DNA of 64,000 nucleotides from an uncultured delta proteobacterium (lineage in GTDB: Bacteria > Desulfobacterota > Binatia > Binatales > Binataceae), in the NCBI GenBank assembly GCA_963782535.1, contig CAWAKE010000011.1, positions 5,520-69,519 on the forward strand, read 5' to 3'. A program made the position numbers and the translations under genes. The notes under the pieces were generated by a model. That model was not told the DNA's origin. It ran no database searches and saw only the letters and a list, made by a program, of their open reading frames with translations. Position 1 is the stretch's first letter; the number at the start of each line of letters is the position of its first letter. Of the stretch, positions 6,479 to 53,658 are shown in pieces.

Positions 6479-6500
6479 GCCCTGGCGGGTAATAATTCAT

Positions 6501-6588
6501 CGTTGAAGAACGCAAAACCATTATCTTCGCTGAGACCTCGCCGAGGCTTCAGACTTCCCATTTGGATAAAACATACGGGCTTCGCCCG
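6501..6588 (-). repeat. dispersed hairpin repeat, copy A (reverse orientation), between the SirB1-like gene stop and the lutB start
   Basis: The reverse complement reads CCAAATGGGAAGTCTGAAGCCTCGGCGAGGTCTCAGCGAAGATAATGGTTTTGCGTTCTTCAACG. This aligns by eye with copies at 15802, 25934, 27025, 27395 and 50648. Confidence 0.8.
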
Positions 6589-6657
6589 CCGAAACCCAAT
6601 CGCGGCTAACGTGCGAGCCCGCGCCTCGAGCAAAGCACCCTGAGAGATCCGGCACAA

Positions 6658-15645: not shown

Positions 15646-15666
15646 GTGCATCCGTCCGCACCGGGA

Positions 15667-15716
15667 CGGAAGCGGAGAAGATTCGTGAAACCTTCGAACG
15701 GTTTCGCACTTTCCAC
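15667..15716 (-). repeat. dispersed hairpin repeat, degenerate copy B1 (reverse orientation)
   Basis: GGAAGCGGAGAAGATTCGTGAAACCTTCGAACGGTTTCGCACTTTCC aligns with the reverse-orientation copy at 27025 (GGAACGCAGAACTGTAATTTTCTGAAACCTCACGAGGTTTCCGACTTCCC). Confidence 0.55.
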
Positions 15717-15801
15717 GCTGACACTCTGGCGGAGACCAGGGCGCAGCGGGCCGACGAGTCCGCGCGGCGCATGAACCGGGCATTTGAAATTCGAGGTTTT
15801 T

Positions 15802-15889
15802 CCAGGGCGAAGCCTGCATCTTACAAACGGGAAGTTTGAAACCTCGCTGAGGTTTCATTGAAAACTACAATGTTGAGTTCTTCACCAAC
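15802..15889 (+). repeat. dispersed hairpin repeat, copy B2 (forward orientation)
   Basis: The sequence is CCAGGGCGAAGCCTGCATCTTACAAACGGGAAGTTTGAAACCTCGCTGAGGTTTCATTGAAAACTACAATGTTGAGTTCTTCACCAAC. The leading 25 nt also match copy D. Confidence 0.8.
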
Positions 15890-15918
15890 TTCCCCACCAG
15901 CGCCTGATCGGCGAGTCT

Positions 15919-16986
<1,068 letters not shown>

Positions 16987-20415: not shown

Positions 20416-20850
20416 GTGTCCACCCGTCATTCTGATCGGTCTGATAGCGCGATGCAGCCGATAGTGCGATCGCGCGCCGCCGCCGTGCGTAATAGGCTTG
20501 CGCGATTCGCGAGCCTCGGCTGCGCAGCGATCCTGGGCGCAGCGATCGCCTCAGCCTGCGGCAAGCCCCGCCAATTGAGCGCCGTCGCTCGCGGCGAAGT
20601 TATCTATCGCACCAATTGCGCTTCATGCCATAACCCCACCAACCCCAATCTGCCCGGTTCGATCGGTCCCGCGATCGCCGGTTCCTCCCGCGCCCTGCTC
20701 AATGCGCGCGTGCTCCACGCCGCTTACCCGCCGGGTTATAAGCCGCAGCGCAAGACTCACACGATGCGCCCGCTGCCGTGGCTCAACGGCCATATGGGCG
20801 ACCTCGCCGCCTACCTCGCCGGCGCCAAGGCCCATCATCCGGGCGCCTAG
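20416..20850 (+). CDS. c-type cytochrome (class I), probable lipoprotein/periplasmic
   Basis: Has the haem-binding motif CASCH and a signal/lipobox-like LGAAIASAC. The start may be ATG 20452. The stop TAG 20848-20850 lies inside the CTAG flanking the IS. Confidence 0.75.
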   Translation: MSTRHSDRSDSAMQPIVRSRAAAVRNRLARFASLGCAAILGAAIASACGKPRQLSAVARGEVIYRTNCASCHNPTNPNLPGSIGPAIAGSSRALLNARVLHAAYPPGYKPQRKTHTMRPLPWLNGHMGDLAAYLAGAKAHHPGA

Positions 20851-22405
20851 GAGTCCGTCCGAGAAATTTCGCCGGTTAAGTTGATCTCCGGATTGGAGCG
20901 ATTGGCTATTGATGATGCCGGTCGCCCCAGGATCCTGCGAAGCGCCGGCTGGTCGGCTGGCGACTACAAAGAGGTGCGCGTTTTGCTGCGGTATTTCTCG
21001 TGACCGCCTGGATGACGGTTACGCATTGCAGAGCCGGTGCAACTTCAAAATGTTGTGGGTGAGACAGACCAGCGCCCACTCGCCCCGGACTTTAGCCAAG
21101 CCGCGCAAAAGAAAGCGGCGAAACCCGCGGGCCTCTTTGATCTGGCCGAAGACCGGCTCCACGATCGTTTTCCGTGTCACATAGATTGCCCGCCCCACCT
21201 TAGTCTGAAGCTTGCGTTTCATGCGGTCGACCCGCGTCGCATTGCGCGGTAACGGTCCGCGCGAGCAGGGCTGGCGGTATTCGTCATGCTTCTGCTTGCC
21301 AGTCGCGATATAGCAATCGATCGGGTCTCCAGACTGACCGAGAGCCGCCAGATACGCGAGGTTCTTCTCCGAGCAATAGCCACTGTCGGCCACGAGGCCG
21401 GTGGGTCGCTGTCCGCTCTGTTGCTCGATCACCTGGACCATCGGTTCGATTTGCTGTTTATCGTTGGCTGCCGGCGTCACGCTCTGCCCCACGATTAACT
21501 GCAACACCGGCTCCACTGCCGCCTGCGCATTGTAGCCTTGCACCAGACCGTCGCTGCCCTGCATCAGGCGCGACTCCGGGTCGGTGAAATTGTATTGATC
21601 TTTGTCCGCGGGCTTCGCCGATTGCACTTCTGCGCGCGGCTTTCCGGCCTTCTCCGCCGACTGCCGCGCCCGCTCTTCCAGCGCCCGTTGCGCCGCGCGA
21701 ATCTTCCTTAGCCGGCTCTCGCGCCGCTGCAACTCTGCGGGTAGCTCGTCGCCCCGCCGATCGGCCCCGTAGTGCGCGTCTTCGGCGGCGTCCACCGCCT
21801 CGGCCTGGGCCAGCAGTTCCCGGACCTCTGCGCGCAGTTGCCGTTGCCGCTCCTGCATCCGGCCATAGCTCATCGCTTTGTGCTTGCTGGCGTTGGCTTT
21901 CAGCTTGGTGCCGTCCAACGCCACCCGCCCCAGTTTCAGCGCTCCCGCTTCCAGCGCGATCTTCAGCACCTCTTCAAACAGCCCGGCCAGCGTCGCCAGA
22001 TGGAGCTTGCGAAAATCTGCGATGGTACGGAAGTTCGGCGCGTTGCCCGCCGCCAGCACGCGAAACCCCACGTCCTCGATTAAACGCCGCTCGATGCGCC
22101 GCGAGCTAAATACCCCCACGCAATACCCATACACCAGCACCTTGGTCATCATCCGCGGATCGTAGGGCGGCTGCCCGCGTTGCTCGTCCCCATACGCCGC
22201 ATCCAGCGCCGATAGGTTCAGATTGTCGACCACATCGCTGACGAAGTAGACCAGATGATTCTCGGGCAACCATTCACGCAGGCTCGGGGGAAGCAGAAAC
22301 TCTTGATCCGGATGGTACGGTCGGTAGCTCTTACCCATGCCTAATTATCTACTACTCACACCCCGTTTTCTTCCTCAGTCAAATAACTATTTCTCGGACA
22401 CGCTC
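20851..22405 (-). mobile_element. complete insertion sequence, IS1182/IS5-superfamily, about 1555 bp
   Basis: Imperfect terminal inverted repeats: GAGTCCGTCCGAGAAAT (20851-20867) versus the reverse complement of 22389-22405, GAGCGTGTCCGAGAAAT (14/17). CTAG flanks both ends (20847-20850 and 22406-22409). One transposase ORF lies inside. Confidence 0.8.
21019..22338 (-). CDS. IS1182-family-like DDE transposase
   Basis: 439 aa with the N-terminal block YRPYHPDQEFLLPPSLREWLPENHLVYFV..YDPRMMTKVLVYGYCVGVFSSRRIE, a central coiled region and the C-terminal VEPVFGQIKEARGFRRFLLRGLAKVRGEWALVCLTHNILKL. Confidence 0.9.
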   Translation of the reverse strand: MGKSYRPYHPDQEFLLPPSLREWLPENHLVYFVSDVVDNLNLSALDAAYGDEQRGQPPYDPRMMTKVLVYGYCVGVFSSRRIERRLIEDVGFRVLAAGNAPNFRTIADFRKLHLATLAGLFEEVLKIALEAGALKLGRVALDGTKLKANASKHKAMSYGRMQERQRQLRAEVRELLAQAEAVDAAEDAHYGADRRGDELPAELQRRESRLRKIRAAQRALEERARQSAEKAGKPRAEVQSAKPADKDQYNFTDPESRLMQGSDGLVQGYNAQAAVEPVLQLIVGQSVTPAANDKQQIEPMVQVIEQQSGQRPTGLVADSGYCSEKNLAYLAALGQSGDPIDCYIATGKQKHDEYRQPCSRGPLPRNATRVDRMKRKLQTKVGRAIYVTRKTIVEPVFGQIKEARGFRRFLLRGLAKVRGEWALVCLTHNILKLHRLCNA

Positions 22406-22489
22406 CTAGTCGCCCCGCGCGCGCGATAGCCTGGTCGCGTCGGCGAGTGATATACGGAGGCGAGTCATTCATCTGCTCCAGGTGAGCCG

Positions 22490-25400
22490 ATGCGATGCGC
22501 AAAATGCGGGACGATTAATCCGGCGGGCAACAATTTCTGCGTGCATTGCGGAAATCAGTTGGCAGCGGTCTGTGCCAAGTGCGGTGCGGAGAACCCACCG
22601 ACGTCGAATTTTTGCGGCAAGTGCGGCGGTCCATTAAGCAAAGACCCACCAGCGCCCGGCACAACTTCTTCGCCCCAAGAGTCGCTTCCCGGATCGCAGA
22701 TCAGAGTCGCAGCCGATGCCGGCACCGCATCCGAAACCCTCGAGGGCGAGCGCAAGACCGTCACGGCGCTGTTTGCGGATATCAAAGGATCGACTGAGCT
22801 GATGGAGGACCTCGATCCTGAGGAAGCGCGTGCGATCATCGACCCGGCGCTGCGATTGATGATCGACGCGGCGCATCGCTACGACGGCTACGTCGTGCAA
22901 TCGACCGGCGACGGCATCTTTGCGCTGTTCGGCGCGCCGGTCGCCCACGAGGACCATCCGCAACGCGCGCTCTATGCCGCGGTGCGGATGCAGGAGGAAA
23001 TGCGGCGGTACTCCGCGAAACTGCGCGAGGCGGGCGACCTGCCGATTGAGGCGCGGATTGGCGCCAACACCGGTGAAGTAGTGGTGCGCTCAATCTCCAC
23101 CGGCAGCGGACACGTCGAGTACACGCCGATCGGCCATACAGCGAATCTCGCGTCGCGGATACAGGCGCTGGCGCCGACCGGTTCAATCGCAATCAGCGAA
23201 GCTACGCGCAAGTTGCGCGAAGGCTATTTCGTTTTGAAGCCGCTCGGCCCGACGCGAGTGAAGGGCCTGGGCGTGCCGGTCAACGTCTATGAGGTGACGG
23301 GCCTCGGTCCGCTGCGCACGCGATTGCAGCGCGCGGCGGGACGCGGGCTGACGAAATTCGTCGGGCGCGAGCGCGAAATGGACGCGATGCGCGCGGCCGC
23401 CGACCATGCGATTTCCGGTCACGGCCAGATCGTCGCCGCGATGGCGGAAGCGGGCACCGGCAAGTCACGACTGGTGTTCGAGTTCAAGGCCAAGCATCAG
23501 TCGGGCTGGATGGTGTTGGAGACTTTTTCAGTCTCCCACGGCAAGGCCAGTGCCTATCTGCCAATAATCGATCTGCTGCACACCTACTTCGACATCAAGT
23601 CCGAAGACGACGCGCGCAAGCGACGGGAGAAAGTCAACGGACGGATCGTGACCCTCGATCCCGTGCTCGAAGACACCCGGCCCTACCTGTTCGCGCTGCT
23701 CGGGGTCGTCGAGGGCGATGACCCGCTGGCCCAAATGGACGGGCAGATCAGGAAGCGGCGCACACTCGAGGCAATCAAGCGAATACTATTGCGCGAGTCG
23801 CTCAAGCAACCGCTGATGGTGATCTTCGAGGACCTGCACTGGATCGACGAGGAGACCCAGGCCTTTCTCAATCTACTGGCAGATTCGATCGGCACCGCGA
23901 GAGTGTTGCTGCTGGTGAACTACCGTCCGGAGTACTCCCATCAGTGGGTTAGCAAGACCTACTGCACGCAGTTGCGGCTCGACTCACTGGGCCGTGAAAG
24001 CGCCGACGAGATGCTGTCCGCGCTGCTCGGTGAGGGCGACGATCTGGCCGCCTTGAAACATCTGATTATCGAAAAGACTGAAGGCAACCCATTCTTTATG
24101 GAAGAGACGGTACAAGTGCTGTTTGACGAGGGCGCACTGGTGCGCGACGGCGCGGTGCACCTGACGAAACCCATCGGCGAGTTGAAGATTCCGCCGACGG
24201 TGCAGGGGATTCTCGCCGCGCGTATCGACCGGCTGCCGACGGATGCAAAAGACCTGCTGCAAACGCTCGCCGTGGTCGGGCGCGAATTTCCGATGTCGTT
24301 GATCCGTATGGTGCTCCCGAAATCGGACGAGGAACTCACCCGCATGCTGAATGAGTTGCAGCTTGGAGAGTTCATCTACGAGCAGCCGGCCGTTGGTGAC
24401 ACCGAATACATCTTCAAGCACGCGCTGACACAAGAGATCGCCTACAACTCGCTGCTGATTGAGCGCCGCAAGCAATTGCACGAACGAATCGGTGCCGCGA
24501 TCGAAGCACTGTACGCTAACTCGATCGAAGACCATCTCGACGAATTGGCCCGCCATTACAGCCGAAGCGGTAATGTGCCAAAGGCACTCGAGTTTCATGA
24601 GCGCGCGGGGCGTCAGGCGGTTCAGCGCCCGGCGTACACGGACGCAATGAGAGCTTTGACCGCCGCACTAGCGCTGCTGATGCGGCTGCCGGAGCGTACC
24701 GAGCGCGACCAGCGGGAGCTTGGCTTACAGACCACCCTCGGCTCGGTGCTGATGATCACCAAGGGATGGGCAGCGCCCGAAACCGAGAAGGTCTACCTTC
24801 TCGCGCACGAACTGGCCAGGACCGGTGGAACCCCGGAGCAACGATTCTCCGCGCTCGTCGGTTGGTTTGGAATCGCCTATGTCAGCGGCAGATTGTCCGC
24901 GGCTCGCGAGCGGTTTAAGGAGATTTTGGACTTCACTAGAGAGCACCCCGAGCCGGCGTTCGTTCTATAAGCCTGTCATTATGAGTGGTCCGTTGCGCTT
25001 TCGGCTGGGGACCTGAACGCCGCGCAAGGTCACGTCGAAGATGGGTTAGCATTCTACCAAGCGCATCCCGGTTCAGTCCCCGTCACGCCCTACAGCGCCC
25101 ATCATCCCGCCGTATGCGGACATGCATGGGGCGCCATCATATTCTGGCTGCGCGGCTATCCGGAGAGCGCGCGGCGGCATGCGGACCAGTCAGTCTCATT
25201 CGCGCACGAAGTTGGACATTCGCCTTCCGTGATTTTCGCATTGGGCCAAAGCGCAAACGTTCACCAAATTGCCAGAGAGGTCACGCCGGCCCTGGAGGCG
25301 GCCGAGGCTGCTATAACGATTGCGGAGAAAGAGGGCGTTCCCCTTTTTGAGGCCTGGGCGCGAGTAGCGAGGGGCTGGGCGCTGGCGTATCTGGGGCAGG

Positions 25401-25876
25401 CGGAACAAGGAGTTGCTCAGATCCATGAGGGCCTTGCGATGGCATCCGCGACCGGCGCGGAACTGTGGCGCACATACAATCTGGCGCAACTCGCCGAAGC
25501 CTGCGGAAAAGCGGGCCGCACCGACGAGGGTCTCGGGGTAATCGCGGAAGCTCTGGATGTCGTCCAGGAAAAGGGTGAACGATGGTGGGAGACTGAGATA
25601 CTTCGGCTTCGCGGCGAACTGTTGCTGCAGCGCAATCCTTCCGGGCTGGCGGAAGCTCAAACTTCGTTTGAGCGAGCAATCGAGATTGCGCGCAAGCAGA
25701 GCGCCAAGTCACTGGAGCTGCGCGCGGCGATGAGCCTCGCGCGGCTGCTGCGGGATACCAATCGCCGCGCCGAAGCGCGTGCGATGCTCGCCGACATCTA
25801 CAACTGGTTCACCGAGGGCTTCGATACCGCCGACCTCATCGACGCCAAATCCCTCCTCGACGAACTAAATACCTAG
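22490..25876 (+). pseudogene. STAND-type adenylate/guanylate cyclase (double zinc ribbon - class III cyclase - AAA/NACHT-like ATPase - TPR) interrupted by one in-frame TAA at 24968-24970
   Basis: ORFs 22490..24970 and 25229..25876 are in the same frame. The 258 nt between them are open and read like the family (..AGDLNAAQGHVEDGLAFYQ..FWLRGYPESARRHADQ..). Motifs: CAKCGT..CVHCG..CAKCG..CGKCG, cyclase TALFADIKGST..GDGIFALFGAP, P-loop AEAGTGKS, and the C-terminal FTEGFDTADLIDAKSLLDEL. Confidence 0.8.
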
Positions 25877-25933
25877 CCGCGCGTCCCTCCCGAAAATCGA
25901 GCATCGCGAACGTCAAGCACAGTGGCGCATGAT

Positions 25934-26148
25934 TGCGCAGCCCGCATCTTTACCAACGGGAAGTCTGAAACCTCGTCTTTCGAATCGCTCGCGGCGCTCG
26001 CTGTGCGCACGTCGCAGACTCCTTATTTTAGCGCTCCTCGCAAACTCGTTAGCTCGCTGCGCCTGCGGCTTCGCTGGTGTGCTCGACTTCGCTGCGCTCC
26101 GTCTAGTGCGAGGTTTCAGAAAAATATAAGTTTTGCGCTCCTCGACCA
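25934..26148 (+). repeat. dispersed hairpin repeat, copy C, split by an insert of about 130 bp between the two hairpin arms
   Basis: The left half GCGCAGCCCGCATCTTTACCAACGGGAAGTCTGAAACCTCG ends at 25974. The right half CGAGGTTTCAGAAAAATATAAGTTTTGCGCTCCTCGACCAC starts at 26108. Confidence 0.7.
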
Positions 26149-26274
26149 CTGTCCCGCCTTTCTTCGCGCTGCCGTGGCGCTGGCGCAGCGGGCCTCCTCC
26201 GTTGTAAGTTCGCCTTTTGCCGAGCGGGAAACTGACCCGCGAACCGAAACCGACCATGCGGAGGGTGTAACCCG

Positions 26275-26997
26275 ATGGAACTGCTCAAAGATCGAATTGC
26301 AATAATCACCGGTGGAACCGGCGCGCTCGGGCGCGCCGTCGGCGAACACTTTCTCGCCAACGGAGCCAAGGTCGCGGTGCCTTACATAATCGACGCCGAA
26401 GTGCCGCTCTTCCACGAAAAAATGGGCGGCCGCTTTCCCGCGGCGAACATTCATCTGGGCAAAATCGACGTCGGCAACGAGGAACAAGTCGCGGCCTTCG
26501 TCGGCGAGGTCGAGAAGAAATGGGGTCGCGTCGATATCCTGATCAACCTCGTCGGCGGCTTCTGGGGCTTCAAGACCGTGGCCGAGACCACCATGGCCGA
26601 ATGGCAGGCGATGTTCGACATCAATTTGAAGCCGACTTTCCTGTGCTGCCGCGCCGCCGTGCCGGTGATGCAGAAAAACAAGTACGGACGCATCGTGTCC
26701 GTCAGTTCGCGCACCGGACTCACCGGCGCGGGCGAGTTCGCCGCCTACGCGATCACCAAGGGCGCGATCAAAACCTTCACCGCGTCGCTCGCCGAAGAGG
26801 TGCTCAACGATAACGTACTGGTCAACGCGATCGCGCCCAGCACGATCGACACCGAGGCGAATCGCAAGGCGATGCCCAAGGCCAAGCACGAAAACTGGGT
26901 CAAGCCGGAAGACATCGCGCGCACGCTCGCATTCCTGTGCTCGGATCAGAACCAGGTGACGTCGGGCGCGGTGGTCCCGGTGTACGGTCGCGCATAA
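26275..26997 (+). CDS. SDR family oxidoreductase
   Basis: Has MELLKDRIAIITGGTGALGRAV, NLVGG and YAITKGA (Y-x3-K). 240 aa. Confidence 0.85.
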   Translation: MELLKDRIAIITGGTGALGRAVGEHFLANGAKVAVPYIIDAEVPLFHEKMGGRFPAANIHLGKIDVGNEEQVAAFVGEVEKKWGRVDILINLVGGFWGFKTVAETTMAEWQAMFDINLKPTFLCCRAAVPVMQKNKYGRIVSVSSRTGLTGAGEFAAYAITKGAIKTFTASLAEEVLNDNVLVNAIAPSTIDTEANRKAMPKAKHENWVKPEDIARTLAFLCSDQNQVTSGAVVPVYGRA

Positions 26998-27024
26998 TGG
27001 CAAGGGAATAAAAGGGGAGAATTG

Positions 27025-27106
27025 TCGAGGAACGCAGAACTGTAATTTTCTGAAACCTCACGAGGTTTCCGACTTCCCATTTGAAAGATGCAGGCTGCGC
27101 CCTGGG
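27025..27106 (-). repeat. dispersed hairpin repeat, copy D (reverse orientation)
   Basis: The reverse complement reads CCAGGGCGCAGCCTGCATCTTTCAAATGGGAAGTCGGAAACCTCGTGAGGTTTCAGAAAATTACAGTTCTGCGTTCCTCGA. Confidence 0.8.
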
Positions 27107-27394
27107 AGAACGCCGGCGAGGGGGCGACCGAACTGTCATCCTGAACGAAGTGAAGGATCTCGCGCGGTACTCCGCGCGTTAAGCCAAAACCCTCGCGTGG
27201 TTCTCCCCCGCGCGTTAAGCGAAAGCCCTCGCTCGGGTTCCGCGCGCTTGGGGCGGGGTGAGTTGCTGCGTCCGATTCTCCGGCCGACGCTCACGATGCA
27301 GCTTTGCGTGGTGAGGGCGGGCTCGCGTCATGACCGCTTAAGCTTTCCCGGCTGCATCGCAGCCGCGGCGATGCGGATCTCACCGCACTTTGGC

Positions 27395-27460
27395 CAATGG
27401 GAAGTCTGAAACCTCCATGAGGTTTCAGAAAAAAATAAGAGTTTTGCGTTCCTGAACCAC
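27395..27460 (+). repeat. dispersed hairpin repeat, copy E (forward orientation; cleanest copy)
   Basis: The sequence is CAATGGGAAGTCTGAAACCTCCATGAGGTTTCAGAAAAAAATAAGAGTTTTGCGTTCCTGAACCAC. It has a perfect 10-bp stem, CTGAAACCTC/GAGGTTTCAG. Confidence 0.85.
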
Positions 27461-27485
27461 TGGATTGCCCCGGGGGCGTCGCGGG

Positions 27486-27923
27486 TCAGATTTGAAAGTG
27501 GATCGCGCTCTTTCGCCGTGCCGCCAACGCCTGCAGCGTCGTGCGCCGCAAAATCGCGTTGACGCTGTCGCGCACCTCGCACCACACGTTGCGCATCGCG
27601 CAGACGTCGCCGCGCTGGCACGTCGAACCGCTGCTCTCCTCGAGACATTCGACCGGCGCGAAGTCGCCCTCGATAATCTCGACCACGTCCGCCATCGAGA
27701 TCTTTGCCGGATGACGCGCCAGCAGATAGCCCCCGCTCGGCCCTTTCTGGCTGGCCACCAGACCGCCGCGTTTGAGCTCGATCAGTAGCCGCCTCAGATA
27801 ATTCTCGGGAATCCCCTGAGCCGCTGCGATCTCCTCGACGCGCTGTGGCTGCACGTTCGGATAACGCTCCGCGAGCATGATTAGCGCCTTCAGGCAGTAG
27901 TCTACACCGACACCAAATTTCAT
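27486..27923 (-). CDS. Rrf2-family transcriptional regulator with three-Cys (Fe-S-type) ligand pattern
   Basis: Start at MKFGVGVDYCLKALIMLA. Has the wHTH segment AAAQGIPENYLRRLLIELKRGGLVASQKGPSGGY and a Cys cluster, C-x9-C-x5-C (VECLEESSGSTCQRGDVCA). It is divergent from sir. Confidence 0.85.
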   Translation of the reverse strand: MKFGVGVDYCLKALIMLAERYPNVQPQRVEEIAAAQGIPENYLRRLLIELKRGGLVASQKGPSGGYLLARHPAKISMADVVEIIEGDFAPVECLEESSGSTCQRGDVCAMRNVWCEVRDSVNAILRRTTLQALAARRKSAIHFQI

Positions 27924-31012: not shown

Positions 31013-31069
31013 CCAGGCGCACCGGCTGCGCCCCCGGGCCGGGATTGCGCCGGCCCGCGTCCGCGCCCG

Positions 31070-31426
31070 CTAAAATCCCATGCTGTCGGCCCAGTCGGCC
31101 AGCTCCGGAATCCGATACTTCTCGCCCGAGTACGCCTTGAACATCAGGAAGACCCAGAAGATCGCAAAACCCAGGTTGATCAGGCTCTGCAGAAAGCGGA
31201 TGAGCCCGCCGAGCGGGCCCGGAAGCACCGCGACGAATACGCTCAGGATGATGTTCACGACGAAGCATGCGATCGAATAAACGATCGACTGCCGCGCGTG
31301 GAAGCGTACGAACTCGTCCTTGTCGTAAGGCTCCAGGTACAGGAAAATTATCCCTGTAACGAAGCCCAGCAGATAGGTCAGAGCCGCAATCGGCCTGTTC
31401 CGCGGCCCAGTGGCCTCTCCGTCCAT
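31070..31426 (-). CDS. small integral membrane protein, DUF4870-like
   Basis: 118 aa with three hydrophobic segments. The pattern AALTYLLGFVTGIIFLY..DEFVRFHARQSIVYSI resembles the DUF4870 family. Confidence 0.7.
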   Translation of the reverse strand: MDGEATGPRNRPIAALTYLLGFVTGIIFLYLEPYDKDEFVRFHARQSIVYSIACFVVNIILSVFVAVLPGPLGGLIRFLQSLINLGFAIFWVFLMFKAYSGEKYRIPELADWADSMGF

Positions 31427-31701
31427 CGCGCAGTCCTCCTTTCAGCTTCCTTCGGTTCCGCCCGCGTTCGCTCCATCCAATCAAGCAGAAGGCGCTCACT
31501 ACGGCAACGTCGTTCCTGCGCCGGCGTCGTTCGAGTTACCTGCCCGCGTCGCGCCGCGGGTCAATCGGTCAGGGCGTTTGCCGATTAGGCGGGGTTTCAG
31601 TAATTACTGTTTCAGTAGTTATGACAGTTCAGCGATTCCAGCATTAATTGTTCACGCTGGGCCGGCTCGGCACGCCCCGCCGGTTCCAAAGGAGCGCCCC
31701 G

Positions 31702-47752: not shown

Positions 47753-48103
47753 ATGAAGCGGGCGCGTTTTATCTGGAAATCGAGTTGAAGCACCTGTCGC
47801 AGCGCCAGGAGTTTCCTGCGTGACGAACTTGGGGTGGAACTTGACGAGCGCGACTATGCCAGGCAACGGCTGACGCTTGACGAATTGCGCGAGCTGTTCG
47901 CCGGCGCCGACCCGCGCGCCTATATGAACCCGAAGAGCCCGGCATTCAAGGCGATGGGGCTGCGCGGGAAAACGTTGACGGCCGAGGAGGCGCTAAGGCT
48001 GATGGCCGAGGAGCCGAATCTGCTCAAGCGGCCGCTGGTGATAGCGGGGCGCGTGTTAGTGGCGGGTTTCGACCGCGATCGGCTGCACGAAGTCCTGAAA
48101 TAG
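47753..48103 (+). CDS. ArsC/Spx/YffB-family thiol oxidoreductase with in-frame TGA (47786-47788) at the first Cys position of CxxC; candidate selenoprotein (or nonsense allele)
   Basis: The same frame as ORF 47834..48103 reads MKRARFIWKSS-TGA-STCRSARSFLRDELGVELDERDY..KSPAFKAMGL..NLLKRPLVI... Total length is 116 codons, as in the family. GAGGAG lies upstream of ATG 47753. A stem-loop at 47802-47821 starts about 14 nt after the TGA. Confidence 0.6.
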
Positions 48104-48237
48104 GTCCCGAAATAAGCTGCACGGGGAGCCGCGGCCGGTGCGAGGGCGGCGGTCTCTGAAACAAAGCACGATGGCCCGGACCGAATTGCAGCCGGTTCCG
48201 GCGTTGGCGCTTGGGGAAAAGGCCGGTGTGCGTCGGG

Positions 48238-49212
48238 TCAGGCGGATTTTTCGACTTTTTCGACGCGTTCCGGAGCTTCGGCGCGATCGGCTTTGTCGTG
48301 ATTGCGCGCCGGCGGGTTGCCCGGAGCCTTCGCTTTGGCGGTCGTCAGAATGTCAATAAATTTGGTCACGGCAGGCGACAGCTCACGGCCGCGCTTGTAG
48401 ATAATCGCGAGCGGTCGGGTAAACGGACCCTCGTTGAATTCGAGCACCCTGAGCGAGTTGCGCGCGGTTTCAAGCTCGACTGCCGAGCGCGGGACGATCG
48501 CGATACCCTGGCCAATTTCGACCGCGCGCTTGATGGTTTCGATATTGTCGAACTCCATCGTGTACACCGGTTTGACGCCGTGTTCGCGCAGGATGCGATC
48601 GGAGGCCTTGCGCGTGGCGATGTCGCGTTCAAAGCCGACGAAGTGCTGTCCGGCAAGCTGCGCCACGCCGACGCGGGTGAGCTTGGCGAGGGCGTCGTCG
48701 GGCGGCACGACCAGGACCAACTCGTCGTGGCGAAAGGCGATCGTCACAATCTGGCTGCGTTTGGCTGGATAGGCCACGACCCCGAGGTCGATCTTGCCCT
48801 CGACCAGGTCGTCGTAAATTTTATTGGAGCGCAGATATTCGAGATGGACGTTGACCTGCGGAAAGGTGCGCAGGAATTCGGTCAGGTAGGGCGGTAATTC
48901 GTGCAGGCCGACGCTGTAAACGGTGCCGACCCGGATGGAGCCGGCGATGACCGAGCCGATTTCGCGCAGGCGGTTTTCGAGTTCGACGAAGCGGCGGACG
49001 ATTTCCTTGCTCGAATTGTAGAGAATCTGGCCGGCCGGAGTGGGTTTGACACCGGCTCGCGCACGCTCTAACAATCGGCATTCGTACTTGTCTTCCAGGC
49101 TTCGGACCTGCTGACTGACGGCCGACTGGGTTACGAAATTTTGCGATGCAGCATAAGAAACGCTGCCGCTTTCGATGATGTCGCAGAAGACCTTTAGCGT
49201 TTCGATGTGCAT
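48238..49212 (-). CDS. LysR-family transcriptional regulator, divergent from glutaryl-CoA dehydrogenase (GcdR-like by context)
   Basis: Start at ATG 49212 (MHIETLKVFCDIIESGSVSYAASQNFVTQSAVSQQVRSLE, the LysR wHTH). The upstream extension of ORF ..49431 was discarded. Confidence 0.85.
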   Translation of the reverse strand: MHIETLKVFCDIIESGSVSYAASQNFVTQSAVSQQVRSLEDKYECRLLERARAGVKPTPAGQILYNSSKEIVRRFVELENRLREIGSVIAGSIRVGTVYSVGLHELPPYLTEFLRTFPQVNVHLEYLRSNKIYDDLVEGKIDLGVVAYPAKRSQIVTIAFRHDELVLVVPPDDALAKLTRVGVAQLAGQHFVGFERDIATRKASDRILREHGVKPVYTMEFDNIETIKRAVEIGQGIAIVPRSAVELETARNSLRVLEFNEGPFTRPLAIIYKRGRELSPAVTKFIDILTTAKAKAPGNPPARNHDKADRAEAPERVEKVEKSA

Positions 49213-50606: not shown

Positions 50607-50647
50607 GCGGCGGTCGCGCGAGGAGGAGGCCTGAGCCAGGAAGTTGT

Positions 50648-50717
50648 TGAGGAGCGAAGAACTTATAGTTTCAGGAAACTGAAACCTCCACGAGGTTTGA
50701 GACTTCCCGTTTGTCGG
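50648..50717 (-). repeat. dispersed hairpin repeat, copy F (reverse orientation)
   Basis: The reverse complement reads CCGACAAACGGGAAGTCTCAAACCTCGTGGAGGTTTCAGTTTCCTGAAACTATAAGTTCTTCGCTCCTCA. Confidence 0.75.
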
Positions 50718-50961
50718 ACATGTTCGACTGGTGCTGCTTGCGCGTAGGTTTCCGGAGTCGCCGGTTGGTCAACGTGGCCAAAGTCAGCCGGAAAATTTCG
50801 TAATAAATCCTCCAATTTACGGACGGCTCTTTGCGCAAATTTGTAGTTGTTTTGCCGCTCGGTCATGCAGGTTCTCCCTACGCGAACGCTGGTCAAATAG
50901 GAGGAACGCGAGCGGATAGCTTTTATTCGCCGGCCTAGGCGTTTGGGCGCGACGCCTGCTA

Positions 50962-52102
50962 GTGTTGTGTCCCATAAATAACCTATTTAATTTATTACTC
51001 TAAAGCGGTATGATGCTGCCCGATGGGCAGACCTAACACGGTAGTGGAGGTGAGTGCGTCGGAGAGTGAGCAGTTGGGTTCGATTGCTCGCTCGCGGAGT
51101 TTGCCGCATTCGTTGGTACGGCGCGCGCGAATCGTTTTGATGTCAGCTGAAGGTGTACCCAATCAGGCGATTGCGGCGCGCTGCGAGGTCAGCGTTCCGA
51201 CCATCAGCCACTGGCGGCGCTGTTGGCGCGAACGCGGGGTGGCTGGGCTGCACGGCGAACTGCGTCCCGGACGGCCGCGCAGCTATGGCGATGAGCAGGT
51301 GGCGACGCTGATGCGCAAGGTGCTCCGCAGCCGACCGCCCAACGCCACCCATTGGAGCGTGCGCACCGTCGCGGCGGACACCGGCATTTCCAAGAGCACG
51401 GTGGCGCGCTACTTCGCGCTGTTCGGGCTCCAGCCGCACCGCAGCAAGAGCTTCAAGCTTTCCACCGACCCTTTCTTCGTCGAGAAGGTGCGCGACGTGG
51501 TGGGGCTCTATCTCAACCCACCGGACAAGGCCCTGGTGCTGTGCGTGGATGAAAAGTCGCAGATCCAGGCGCTGGAGCGCACCCAACCGGTGCTGCCGCT
51601 GGGTCTCGGCTACCTTGAAGGGGTAACTCATGACTATTTTCGGCATGGGACCACGACCTTATTCGCGGCGCTCAACGTGCTCGACGGGGCGGTCATCACT
51701 CAGTGCAAACCGCGCCATCGGCACCAGGAGTTTCTGGCCTTTCTCAACCACCTCGATCACCATGTTCCGGCCGCGCTTGAGGCGCACCTGATCGCCGACA
51801 ACTACGCCACTCACAAACATCCGCGGGTCAAGGCCTGGCTCGCGCGCCATCCGCGCTTCCACCTCCATTACACCCCCACCTACGCGAGTTGGCTCAATCA
51901 GGTGGAGCGCTGGTTCGCGCTTATCACGCACCGCGCGATCCGCCGCGGCTCGTTCCGTTCGGTGCGTGACCTGGTCCAAACAATCGATCGCTTTGTGACT
52001 CACTACAATACTCACAAGCGACCCTTTGCCTGGACCGCTACCGCCGACTCAATCTTCGCCAAGCTCCAACGCCTTTGTAAAGTTATTTCTGGGACACAAC
52101 AC
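50962..52102 (+). mobile_element. complete IS630-family insertion sequence (1141 bp) in a CTAG target with TA duplication
   Basis: The terminal inverted repeats are GTGTTGTGTCCCATAAATAAC (50962-) and the reverse complement of ..52102, GTGTTGTGTCCCAGAAATAAC (20/21). Flanks are C-TA on the left (50959-50961) and TA-G on the right (52103-52105). Confidence 0.85.
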
Positions 52103-52105
52103 TAG
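51023..52105 (+). CDS. IS630-family DDE transposase
   Basis: 360 aa with N-terminal HTH regions (VPNQAIAARCEVSVPTISHWRR), DEKSQIQALERT and DNYATHKHPRVKAWL..YTPTYASWLNQVERWF (DDE region). The stop TAG uses the flanking TA. Confidence 0.9.
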   Translation: MGRPNTVVEVSASESEQLGSIARSRSLPHSLVRRARIVLMSAEGVPNQAIAARCEVSVPTISHWRRCWRERGVAGLHGELRPGRPRSYGDEQVATLMRKVLRSRPPNATHWSVRTVAADTGISKSTVARYFALFGLQPHRSKSFKLSTDPFFVEKVRDVVGLYLNPPDKALVLCVDEKSQIQALERTQPVLPLGLGYLEGVTHDYFRHGTTTLFAALNVLDGAVITQCKPRHRHQEFLAFLNHLDHHVPAALEAHLIADNYATHKHPRVKAWLARHPRFHLHYTPTYASWLNQVERWFALITHRAIRRGSFRSVRDLVQTIDRFVTHYNTHKRPFAWTATADSIFAKLQRLCKVISGTQH

Positions 52106-53582: not shown

Positions 53583-53658
53583 GGGGCTGTAGCTCAGCTG
53601 GGAGAGCGCCTGAATGGCATTCAGGAGGTCGACGGTTCGATCCCGTTCAGCTCCACCA
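53583..53658 (+). tRNA. tRNA-Ala (anticodon GGC), CCA encoded
   Basis: Hand-folded cloverleaf: acceptor GGGGCTG/CAGCTCC with G3:U70, D stem GCTC/GAGC, anticodon stem CCTGA/TCAGG with loop ATGGCAT, T arm GACGG-TTCGATC-CCGTT. 76 nt. Confidence 0.9.

Follow-up and report, generated by a model that had tools for sequence, protein, structure and literature searches.

Repetitive extragenic palindromic (REP) sequences and bacterial interspersed mosaic elements (BIMEs) of Enterobacteria and Pseudomonas are intergenic and present many times per genome; each has a short leader beside a palindromic stem that is conserved in sequence and closed by a variable loop. They are over-represented behind the 3′ ends of genes and under-represented in promoter spacers, are lineage-specific in sequence, lack terminal inverted repeats (TIRs) and target-site duplications (TSDs), and occur singly, as inverted pairs or as mosaics with other short motifs. 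All of these features recur in a hairpin repeat which we describe here from a 64,000-nucleotide stretch of an uncultured delta proteobacterium of the Binataceae (GenBank assembly GCA_963782535.1, contig CAWAKE010000011.1, positions 5,520 to 69,519; the whole stretch is hereafter denoted the window). The hairpin repeat is an undescribed family of the known REP/BIME-like type, new as a family. On balance, we read it as a lineage-restricted, non-autonomous set of hairpin-centred interspersed repeats, the Binataceae counterpart of the REP, BIME and REPIN (REP doublet forming hairpins) elements.

The counterpart is not an exact one. REPs are 20–40 nt long, with a G/C-rich stem and the leader GTAG, whereas the Binataceae unit spans 85–170 nt and has an A/T-rich stem and the leader GGGAAGT; it is thus a REP in the broad sense (a stem-loop palindrome with a leader, extragenic and multicopy), but not by length. 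As in BIMEs, palindromic units alternate and are combined with a limited set of motifs (here termed M1–M5), although the short-range junctions are head-to-head only, unlike E. coli BIME-2 in which tail-to-tail junctions also occur at short range. The host belongs to an uncultured phylum, Binatota, and no REP-associated tyrosine transposase (RAYT) has been found so far.

Our analogy with REPIN/RAYT biology draws in part on PMC3116915, PMC3337134 and PMC5581495. REPINs (PMC3116915, PMC3337134, bioRxiv 10.1101/2022.05.22.493013) share with the present repeat the combination of inverted hairpin doublets with many singlets resembling decaying remnants, as well as vertical inheritance, persistence within a clade and a population of diverged copies. 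The REPIN doublet has a fixed short spacer and forms one long hairpin, whereas the Binataceae spacers are heterogeneous and range from 94 to 550 nt; REPINs are also defined by a flanked single-copy RAYT gene, which for the Binataceae repeat would be a predicted partner.

Other small elements offer partial parallels. Palindrome-associated transposable elements (PATEs) derived from IS200/IS605 are likewise directional, with subterminal hairpins, neither TIRs nor TSDs, and a short conserved motif at the left boundary (CAAAY in the present unit, the right end of which contains TCAAC). These motifs may resemble IS608-type cleavage and target motifs, a likeness which we treat as a lead only. PATEs differ in that no relative of tnpA or tnpB was found here, and the left and right hairpins of the Binataceae unit are unrelated to each other. 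The ERIC/IRU, Correia and RUP/BOX miniature inverted-repeat transposable elements (MITEs) are also small (100–200 nt), non-coding, structured and intergenic, with strain-variable positions, and are often co-transcribed with neighbouring genes; however, they have TIRs, and Correia and RUP have target duplications and a matching insertion sequence (IS) family, none of which was found for the Binataceae repeat. Nor does it resemble a classical DDE-type MITE, as neither TIRs nor TSDs were found and its termini are unlike those of the IS630-like (CTAGTGTTGTGTCCCATAAATAAC) and IS5-like (GGAGTCCGTCCGAGAAAT) elements in the window. The hairpin also lacks the G+C-rich stem and U-tract of an intrinsic terminator.

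Copies in the window and architecture of the unit

The core of the repeat, GGGAAGT-CTGAAACCTC-NNN-GAGGTTTCAG, is present in six copies in the window. Its 17-nt 5′ half, GGGAAGTCTGAAACCTC, is matched with at most one mismatch at six sites (6543–6559−, 15829–15845+, 25958–25974+, 27062–27078−, 27399–27415+ and 50692–50708−), against 0.11 expected from dinucleotide-preserving shuffles; none of 100 shuffles contained six or more. A covariance model (R1), built from 58 copies of the repeat, recovers five full window copies at 68–86 bits (27389–27479+, 15819–15908+, 27002–27088−, 50624–50718− and 6480–6569−) and a split copy as two halves (25948–26064 and 26098–26168; 25–28 bits).

The unit comprises, from 5′ to 3′, an optional M2 (GAGCAWCGCGAGCGTCAATC), CATGAT-GAGGTTTTC, an optional M1, CCAAAY, the leader GGGAAGT, the stem and loop, an optional TTTCCTG, an A-rich part, the right end and a tail. 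M1 (CAGGGCGnAGCCCGCATCTT) contains a GGGC-GNA-GCCC mini-hairpin, with GCGC/GCGC variants in other species. The 7-nt leader is invariant and adjoins the 10-bp stem CTGAAACCTC/GAGGTTTCAG. The A-rich part (AAAACTATAAGTTTTG) appears by eye to hold an AAAAC/GTTTT mini-hairpin, the right part ends GCGTTCCTCAACMA (also written CGTTCCTCAACMA), and the 3′ tail is a pyrimidine-rich CTYTCC stretch of ~8–14 nt. The leader and hairpin alone occupy 30 nt, the conserved unit ~85–95 nt, and the unit with M1 and M2 up to ~170 nt. The copies and associated features in the window are as follows.

6492–6590, minus strand: copy 1; R1 68.3 bits; right end 6500–6513, core 6530–6559, M1 6572–6588
15685–15707, minus strand: variant hairpin GCGAAACCG-TTCGAA-GGTTTC with GGAAAGT before it; no R1 match at E ≤ 10
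15794–15896, plus strand: copy 2; R1 75.5 bits; GAGGTTTTTC plus M1 15804–15820, core 15829–15858, right end 15875–15888, CU-rich tail
25899–25974, plus strand: copy 3, 5′ part; M2-like 25899–25912, M1-like 25932–25948, leader and 5′ arm 25958–25974
25975–26109, no strand assigned: loop insertion in copy 3; 135 nt of a second repeat family with core ACTAGGCGAGCTTGCGAGCCGAGCTAACGAGTCTGCGAGGTGCGC, here in reverse orientation
26110–26156, plus strand: copy 3, 3′ part; R1 28.2 bits; 3′ arm 26110–26119, right end 26135–26148, tail
27002–27112, minus strand: copy 4; R1 73.3 bits; tail and right end 27002–27035, core 27050–27078, M1 27087–27103
27113–27388, no strand assigned: inner spacer of the head-to-head copies 4 and 5; module mosaic with M5 at ~27158 (minus) and M3 GGCTGCATCGCAGCC at 27350
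27389–27465, plus strand: copy 5 (the flagged copy); R1 85.8 bits; core 27399–27428, right end 27446–27459, then CTGGATT
50630–50718, minus strand: copy 6; R1 71.0 bits; right end 50644–50657, TTTCCTG insert, core 50679–50708

Copy 5 has a perfect stem with the loop CAT, and the stop codon of an Rrf2 gene lies at 27486. The other cores show small departures: copy 1 (GGGAAGTCTGAAGCCTC GGC GAGGTCTCAG) has one stem mismatch and one wobble, copy 2 has a T.T outer pair, copy 6 has one stem mismatch and no M1, and in copy 4 (5′ arm CGGAAACCTC) only two letters, GT, separate the arms. Copy 1 lies in the spacer of tandem minus-strand genes, in the same orientation as these; copy 2 is upstream of a threonine-aldolase-like gene (Pfam Beta_elim_lyase), the 3′ part of copy 3 is upstream of an SDR gene (26275–26997), and the tail of copy 6 points toward the stop codon of an acyl-CoA dehydrogenase gene (50606).

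An earlier note on this DNA, made from the sequence alone, had claimed at least seven copies of 65–90 bp. Six are confirmed where that note placed them, although the element is longer than proposed, by the CU-rich tail and the optional 5′ modules. The forward copy described there as split, at 25934–26148, is a real one, the element itself being intact and interrupted by the 135-nt insertion from a second repeat family. The proposed seventh copy, at 15667–15716, gives no R1 match (E > 10) and is by its sequence a related variant hairpin rather than a family member; in full it reads GGAAAGT-GCGAAACCG-TTCGAA-GGTTTCAC, is placed head-to-head with copy 2, and resembles a variant subfamily of other Binataceae, in whose genomes a similar hairpin (GCGAAACCC...GGGTTTCGC) stands beside the core or replaces it. 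Reading and alignment of the copies bear out the consensus, the 10-bp stem and the variable 3-nt loop that the note had given, and the extra 5′ arm CAGGGCGnAGCCYGCATCTT is found in copies 1, 2, 3 and 4.

All six window copies are intergenic, as had been proposed; they lie between genes supported by Pfam and by third-position G+C content (GC3), the gene map of the window being GC3-based and the flanking genes checked with Pfam. The element is likewise non-coding, with no consistent reading frame across copies: NTG often spans the junction of the loop and the 3′ arm, but in the alignment indels break any common frame.

Two other features of the window may be recorded here. A tRNA gene (53583–53655; RF00005, 62.6 bits) is its sole Rfam match. 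Within the divergent spacer 31441–31648, an AT-rich stretch (31591–31629) has GTTTCAGTA directly repeated (GGGGTTTCAGTAATTACTGTTTCAGTAGTT); this stretch and the hairpin arm have GGTTTCAG in common, yet it is probably unrelated to the hairpin repeat.

Conservation of the stem and modular make-up

The covariance alignment shows that 99.1% of stem cells pair. The earlier note had proposed compensatory changes as a check on the stem; little covariation is seen because the stem is nearly invariant, and only the outermost pair (C-G to U-A in 14 copies) and the closing pair (U-A in 6, G-C in 1, U-G wobble in 5) covary. The stem is therefore conserved as sequence, beyond structure alone. The loop has the form NNT, its first two positions being near random and its third T in 96 of 119 copies and C in 18. 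Among stem mispairs on the forward strand, G.T wobbles outnumber A.C (11 versus 4), which hints, if weakly, at folding of the forward strand rather than the reverse. We also considered long-range pairing of GGGAAGT with the CU-rich tail, and rejected it: 13% of tails are fully complementary, against 3–5% in controls, which is too few.

M1 is joined to the core in 109 of 115 cases. M2 also recurs independently, with 134 copies in 880 kb, of which 54 lie directly 5′ of the core. The other recurrent short modules observed alongside M1 (M2 GAGCAWCGCGAGCG, M3 GGCTGCATCGCAGCC, M4 CCTGCGCATATCGC and M5 CTGGATTACGCGCGGAGGACCGCGCGAGATCCTTCACTTCGTTCAGGATGAC) are mixed with the hairpin unit in varied order and orientation.

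Range and abundance

An exact scan for the 27 fixed core bases, using one genome for each of 185,579 species, returned at least 110 loci; among the matches listed, all are from 11 Binataceae metagenome-assembled genomes (MAGs), labelled Candidatus Binataceae, Candidatus Binatus or delta-/Deltaproteobacteria. R1 identifies 193 copies in 816 kb (the window and the first 99 listed loci, which are copy-centred). Beyond the seeding copy, the listed loci hold a further copy approximately every 11 kb, the same density as in the window (~1 per 10 kb). The prospect, raised in the earlier note as a point that would count against a family, that the window held the only copies is thus not borne out.

The distribution within the Binataceae is narrow. 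In an orthologous 9.6-kb sulfite-reductase locus from 80 Binataceae species (704 kb; 73–93% protein identity), R1 has 12 matches in four of the 80 species, all four being the closest relatives (87–93% identity), and the family is therefore abundant but limited to one Binataceae branch. A few more distant members, MFD02248.bin.2.125 (80% identity) among them, have this core between flanks that differ. Rfam contains no match to the repeat: the whole window gave only the tRNA at the gathering threshold, and positions 26990–27500 gave only chance matches (E > 3) in E-value mode. Our literature search, which included part of the core sequence, found no description of the repeat. The view of the earlier note that this is a lineage-specific, undescribed family, REP/MITE-like or a structured RNA, agrees with these results.

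Placement relative to genes and pairing of copies

In other genomes 138 of 147 copies are intergenic. The 116 copies with called neighbours are distributed as follows.

Convergent spacers: 49 of 116
Tandem spacers, same sense as the genes: 35 of 116
Tandem spacers, antisense: 24 of 116
Divergent spacers: 8 of 116

Promoter spacers are thus avoided, given the eight divergent cases, and there is little orientation preference relative to transcription, as indicated by the 35 to 24 division in tandem spacers. Of the 116 copies, 73 have the tail side toward a stop codon, and in 37% it is toward a start codon; where a stop codon is faced, its median distance from the end of the core is 60 nt, that is ~10–15 nt past the right part. 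At L005 (6833−, 7273+) and at ~10 other copies in relatives, the stop codon of a convergent gene is a TGA within the right end of the element itself (GGTTGAGG, reverse strand). In these cases translation runs into the purine-rich complement of the tail, which supplies the last codons, so that insertions have remodelled protein C-termini.

Approximately three quarters of copies are singletons. Head-to-head pairs (a minus copy followed by a plus copy) number 25, at a spacing of 94–550 nt, while no tail-to-tail pair is closer than 906 nt, i.e. the length of a gene. Copies 4 and 5 form such a head-to-head pair, which fills the convergent spacer between the SDR and Rrf2 genes: the tail of copy 4 begins 5 nt past the SDR stop codon (26997) and the pair ends ~20 nt before the stop codon on the other side. 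Pair interiors are heterogeneous mosaics of M1–M5, and the left sides of the two members usually differ.

The two ends of the single unit, CAAAY-GGGAAGT... and ...CCTCAACMACTYTCC, do not form an inverted repeat. Flanking target duplications, which the earlier note had suggested as something to look for, were not found: the tails of 23 doublets show neither these nor inverted termini beyond the unit, and none was seen in comparisons of filled with empty orthologous sites, where flank divergence between species precludes boundaries at base resolution.

Turnover and retention at orthologous sites

Copies have been gained or lost at orthologous intergenic sites among species that differ at ~30–40% of 4-fold degenerate sites. 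The SDR/Rrf2 spacer is 24–92 nt in six species without the element (75 nt in MFD09495), and 289–495 nt where the pair is present (window, SPRUCE_314, BP6.bin67 and SMAG_U5149). In SMAG_U13892 (L136:3259–3358) this spacer is 160 nt long and contains a single hairpin between two inverted right parts, in a long form resembling a perfect palindrome; its sequence looks like the product of recombination between the two copies of a head-to-head pair, by way of the palindromic core. Copy 2 has orthologues with an uncommon loop in MFD09495 (GCT) and SMAG_U5149 (GTT), while its site is empty in SPRUCE_314 (spacer of 55 nt) and in a soil-metagenome contig which joins 15646 to 15941. SPRUCE_314 in turn has a pair at the equivalent of window positions 48103–48238, a copy (shared with BP6.bin67) at the equivalent of 31013–31071, and a copy directly behind the sulfite reductase gene (the 29.69-kb site), all of which are empty in the window. 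Only one of four comparable sites is common to the window and SPRUCE_314.

Once resident, the core changes slowly. Sixteen pairwise comparisons at four orthologous sites give 0.072 differences per site for the 27 fixed positions of the core, against 0.29–0.43 at 4-fold degenerate sites of the adjacent SDR gene; the right part, counted by eye at ~0.2–0.45 differences per site, is near neutral. The closing pair is compensated in three orthologous copies (C-G to G-C in L170; C-G to T-A in L117 and L112). The slow core, ~5x below neutral, and the compensated closing pairs together indicate that resident copies retain the hairpin, which could result either from selection on each copy or from conversion between copies.

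Two SPRUCE_314 contigs terminate within ~300 nt of copies (the end of JBEKJC010000010.1, L013, and the start of JBEKJC010000048.1, L023), at the place equivalent to 48103–48238. They show synteny to neighbouring parts of the window (48.1 kb), from which it follows that the repeat breaks short-read assemblies; MAG contigs L008 and L032 likewise end at or near copies.

Insertions into the hairpin loop and neighbouring mobile DNA

The insertion in copy 3 lies between the loop and the 3′ arm, at one exact position. Homologous insertions of 52–67 nt (ACTAGGCGAGCTTGCGAGCCGAGCTAACGAGTCTGCGAGGTGCGC...) occupy the same position in independent copies (L014, L019, L042/L170, L067 and L090), whilst L054 has a longer insertion in a copy without a 3′ arm. 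The insertions are found in both orientations, and the second family to which they belong (52–135 nt) is rich in GCGAG motifs. A soil contig (X4) from a related strain joins 25973 to 26110 with four letters between them, giving an uninterrupted hairpin. The recurrence at one position and the uninterrupted form in a related strain together identify the hairpin loop as a landing site for a second small element.

Copy 3 also stands at the right edge of a 5.3-kb block (20850–26164) that is missing from the syntenic position in SPRUCE_314 (L063), SMAG_U5149 (L042) and MAG011 (L102), which suggests, from the arrangement of the sequence, that the repeats may mark rearrangement breakpoints. The block contains an IS5-like element, a gene with zinc-ribbon, adenylate/guanylate cyclase and AAA_16 domains (22490–24970) and a TPR gene; in SPRUCE_314 the cyclase-domain and TPR genes are on another contig (L103).

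The IS5/IS1182-like element (~20847–22409) encodes a DUF772 and DDE_Tnp_1 transposase (21019–22338, minus strand) and has inverted ends GGAGTCCGTCCGAGAAAT and CTAG flanks; soil contigs matching exactly 20847–22409 are deeper than the flanks, and this element is therefore multi-copy. An IS630-like element (50959–52105), with a DDE_3 transposase bearing helix-turn-helix domains (51023–52105) and 24-nt inverted repeats CTAGTGTTGTGTCCCATAAATAAC, is absent from the syntenic place in SPRUCE_314 (L023). A link between the hairpin repeat and either element was considered and rejected, as their ends are unrelated to the repeat.

Searches for a transposase, transcripts and signals

No RAYT, IS200-type or other transposase was found beside or between copies in the window and 190 Binataceae loci (1.5 Mb); as these loci represent <10% of each genome, a RAYT-like gene present once could readily have escaped the search. 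The tblastn search used E. coli RayT (from NC_000913.3) and an IS200 TnpA query; its matches, judged by eye, are spurious, overlapping dnaJ-like and enoyl-CoA-hydratase-like genes. Open reading frames between head-to-head, tail-to-tail and tandem pairs appear, from inspection of their translations, to be ordinary (e.g. SDR, enoyl-CoA hydratase, HEAT, Sel1 and TusA-like).

A scan of 26900–27600, around copies 4 and 5, revealed neither a sigma-70 promoter nor an intrinsic terminator. The stem is followed by an A-run on the forward strand and by ACTTCCC on the reverse strand; the earlier note was right that this is not a canonical intrinsic terminator. The parS, dif, attC and operator readings were rejected by inspection of the sequence, on half-site order, copy number and the dispersed positions in two orientations.

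We found no RNA sequencing run containing the window. Peat and soil metatranscriptome contigs do contain the element (the L071 copies are covered); they are collapsed from multiple copies and without strand, and are therefore uninformative on discrete transcripts.

Nature of the repeat

The preferred reading, a Binataceae counterpart of REPs and BIMEs, follows from the many intergenic copies, the invariant leader and stem with a free loop, the coexistence of singlets and inverted doublets, the mosaic make-up and the preference for gene 3′ ends, together with lineage restriction combined with vertical persistence, fast gain and loss of sites, and the lack of visible inverted termini or target duplications. 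This last point makes a REP/BIME-like element a better description than a classical MITE, and the presence of both orientations relative to genes makes it a better one than an oriented cis-regulatory RNA. Spread would then depend on an enzyme acting in trans, which would read the leader and stem as folded single-stranded DNA; by analogy with REPs, this may be a single-copy HUH/Y1 (RAYT-like) transposase, the action of which would leave neither inverted termini nor a target duplication. The hairpin may be retained in place because it is bound by that enzyme or by a host factor, or because it protects or insulates mRNA 3′ ends, as REPs do.

Several observations weigh against this reading. The unit exceeds a classical REP in length and modularity, the doublets have variable spacing and a heterogeneous interior unlike those of REPINs, and the loci searched contain no transposase to which spread could be assigned. 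Among the loci compared, neither a transposition intermediate nor a very recent identical insertion was demonstrated, and the RNA contigs which carry the element are not strand-resolved. Moreover, a core that changes slowly once resident is as compatible with a host function as with a mobile element. A structural element of the host, with the hairpin selected in each copy and spread being secondary, by recombination or conversion, nonetheless seems to us unlikely. Its candidate roles include a stabiliser of mRNA 3′ ends, an insulator of transcription or translation, and a site for a nucleoid or topology protein, acting as RNA in the 3′ untranslated region or as DNA. The contrast between the core and the near-neutral right part, the compensatory flips of the closing pair, the excess of forward-strand G.T over A.C, the tails lying close to stop codons and a palindromic stem that would fold either way round are all consistent with such a role. 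However, turnover is high even in close relatives, the very sequence of the stem is fixed, suggesting a reader specific for sequence, neither a U-tract nor a terminator signature is present, more than a third of tails face start codons, and most Binataceae manage without the element.

The pairing of copies could also be explained if the mobile unit were the head-to-head doublet itself, a DDE-type MITE of 250–600 nt with TIRs of ~100 nt and CU-rich outer ends, of which the singles would be decayed halves. The abundance of close head-to-head pairs and the lack of equally close tail-to-tail ones, the almost exact filling of a convergent spacer by copies 4 and 5, the degenerate reverse hairpin at the head side of copy 2, and the single hairpin between two inverted right parts in L136 would all accord with this; we consider it improbable, though, given that most copies are singletons, that pair interiors are heterogeneous mosaics with usually unlike left sides, that no target-site duplications are visible at the tails, and that both ISs in the window have unrelated ends. 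Less probable still is a multicopy small-RNA gene or an oriented, attenuator-like leader switching between the alternative pairings GAGGTTTTC/GAAACCTC, the main stem and GGTTTCAG/CTGAAA. The long form does contain successive complementary segments, three window copies point toward a downstream start codon, and the element is present in metatranscriptome contigs, but orientation is near random and convergent spacers are the largest class, the optional segments (M1 and TTTCCTG) are absent from many copies, no promoter or terminator signature and no Rfam match was found, the long-range closing helix is unsupported by the tails, and the RNA contigs, collapsed from multiple copies, have no direction.

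A further possibility goes beyond selfish DNA, namely that the invariant leader and stem (27 nt) constitute the site recognised by a candidate conserved protein or ribonucleoprotein system peculiar to this branch of the Binataceae. Species that share only ~80% identity in their sulfite reductase proteins have copies with the same leader and stem. We think this possibility rather improbable, although that sameness across species, the ~5x slower than neutral evolution of the core and the repeated hits on the loop by the 52–135-nt element would accord with it. If correct, it would imply either a new mobile system that targets hairpin loops, or a genome-structuring or RNA-processing signal domesticated by the host.

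Binatota, and within them the Binataceae, are abundant uncultured soil and peat bacteria which are known only from MAGs, and the repeat alters the lengths of their intergenic regions by hundreds of bases. A model of the repeat allows better annotation, binning and scaffolding of such genomes and provides a sensitive marker for the clade. The finding extends REP/BIME-like mosaic repeats to a phylum without known examples, and reveals a natural system of nested small elements in which a hairpin serves as landing pad, raising the question of why resident copies keep that hairpin. Should there be a cognate transposase in single copy, the repeat would represent a long-term association of the REPIN/RAYT type outside the Proteobacteria.

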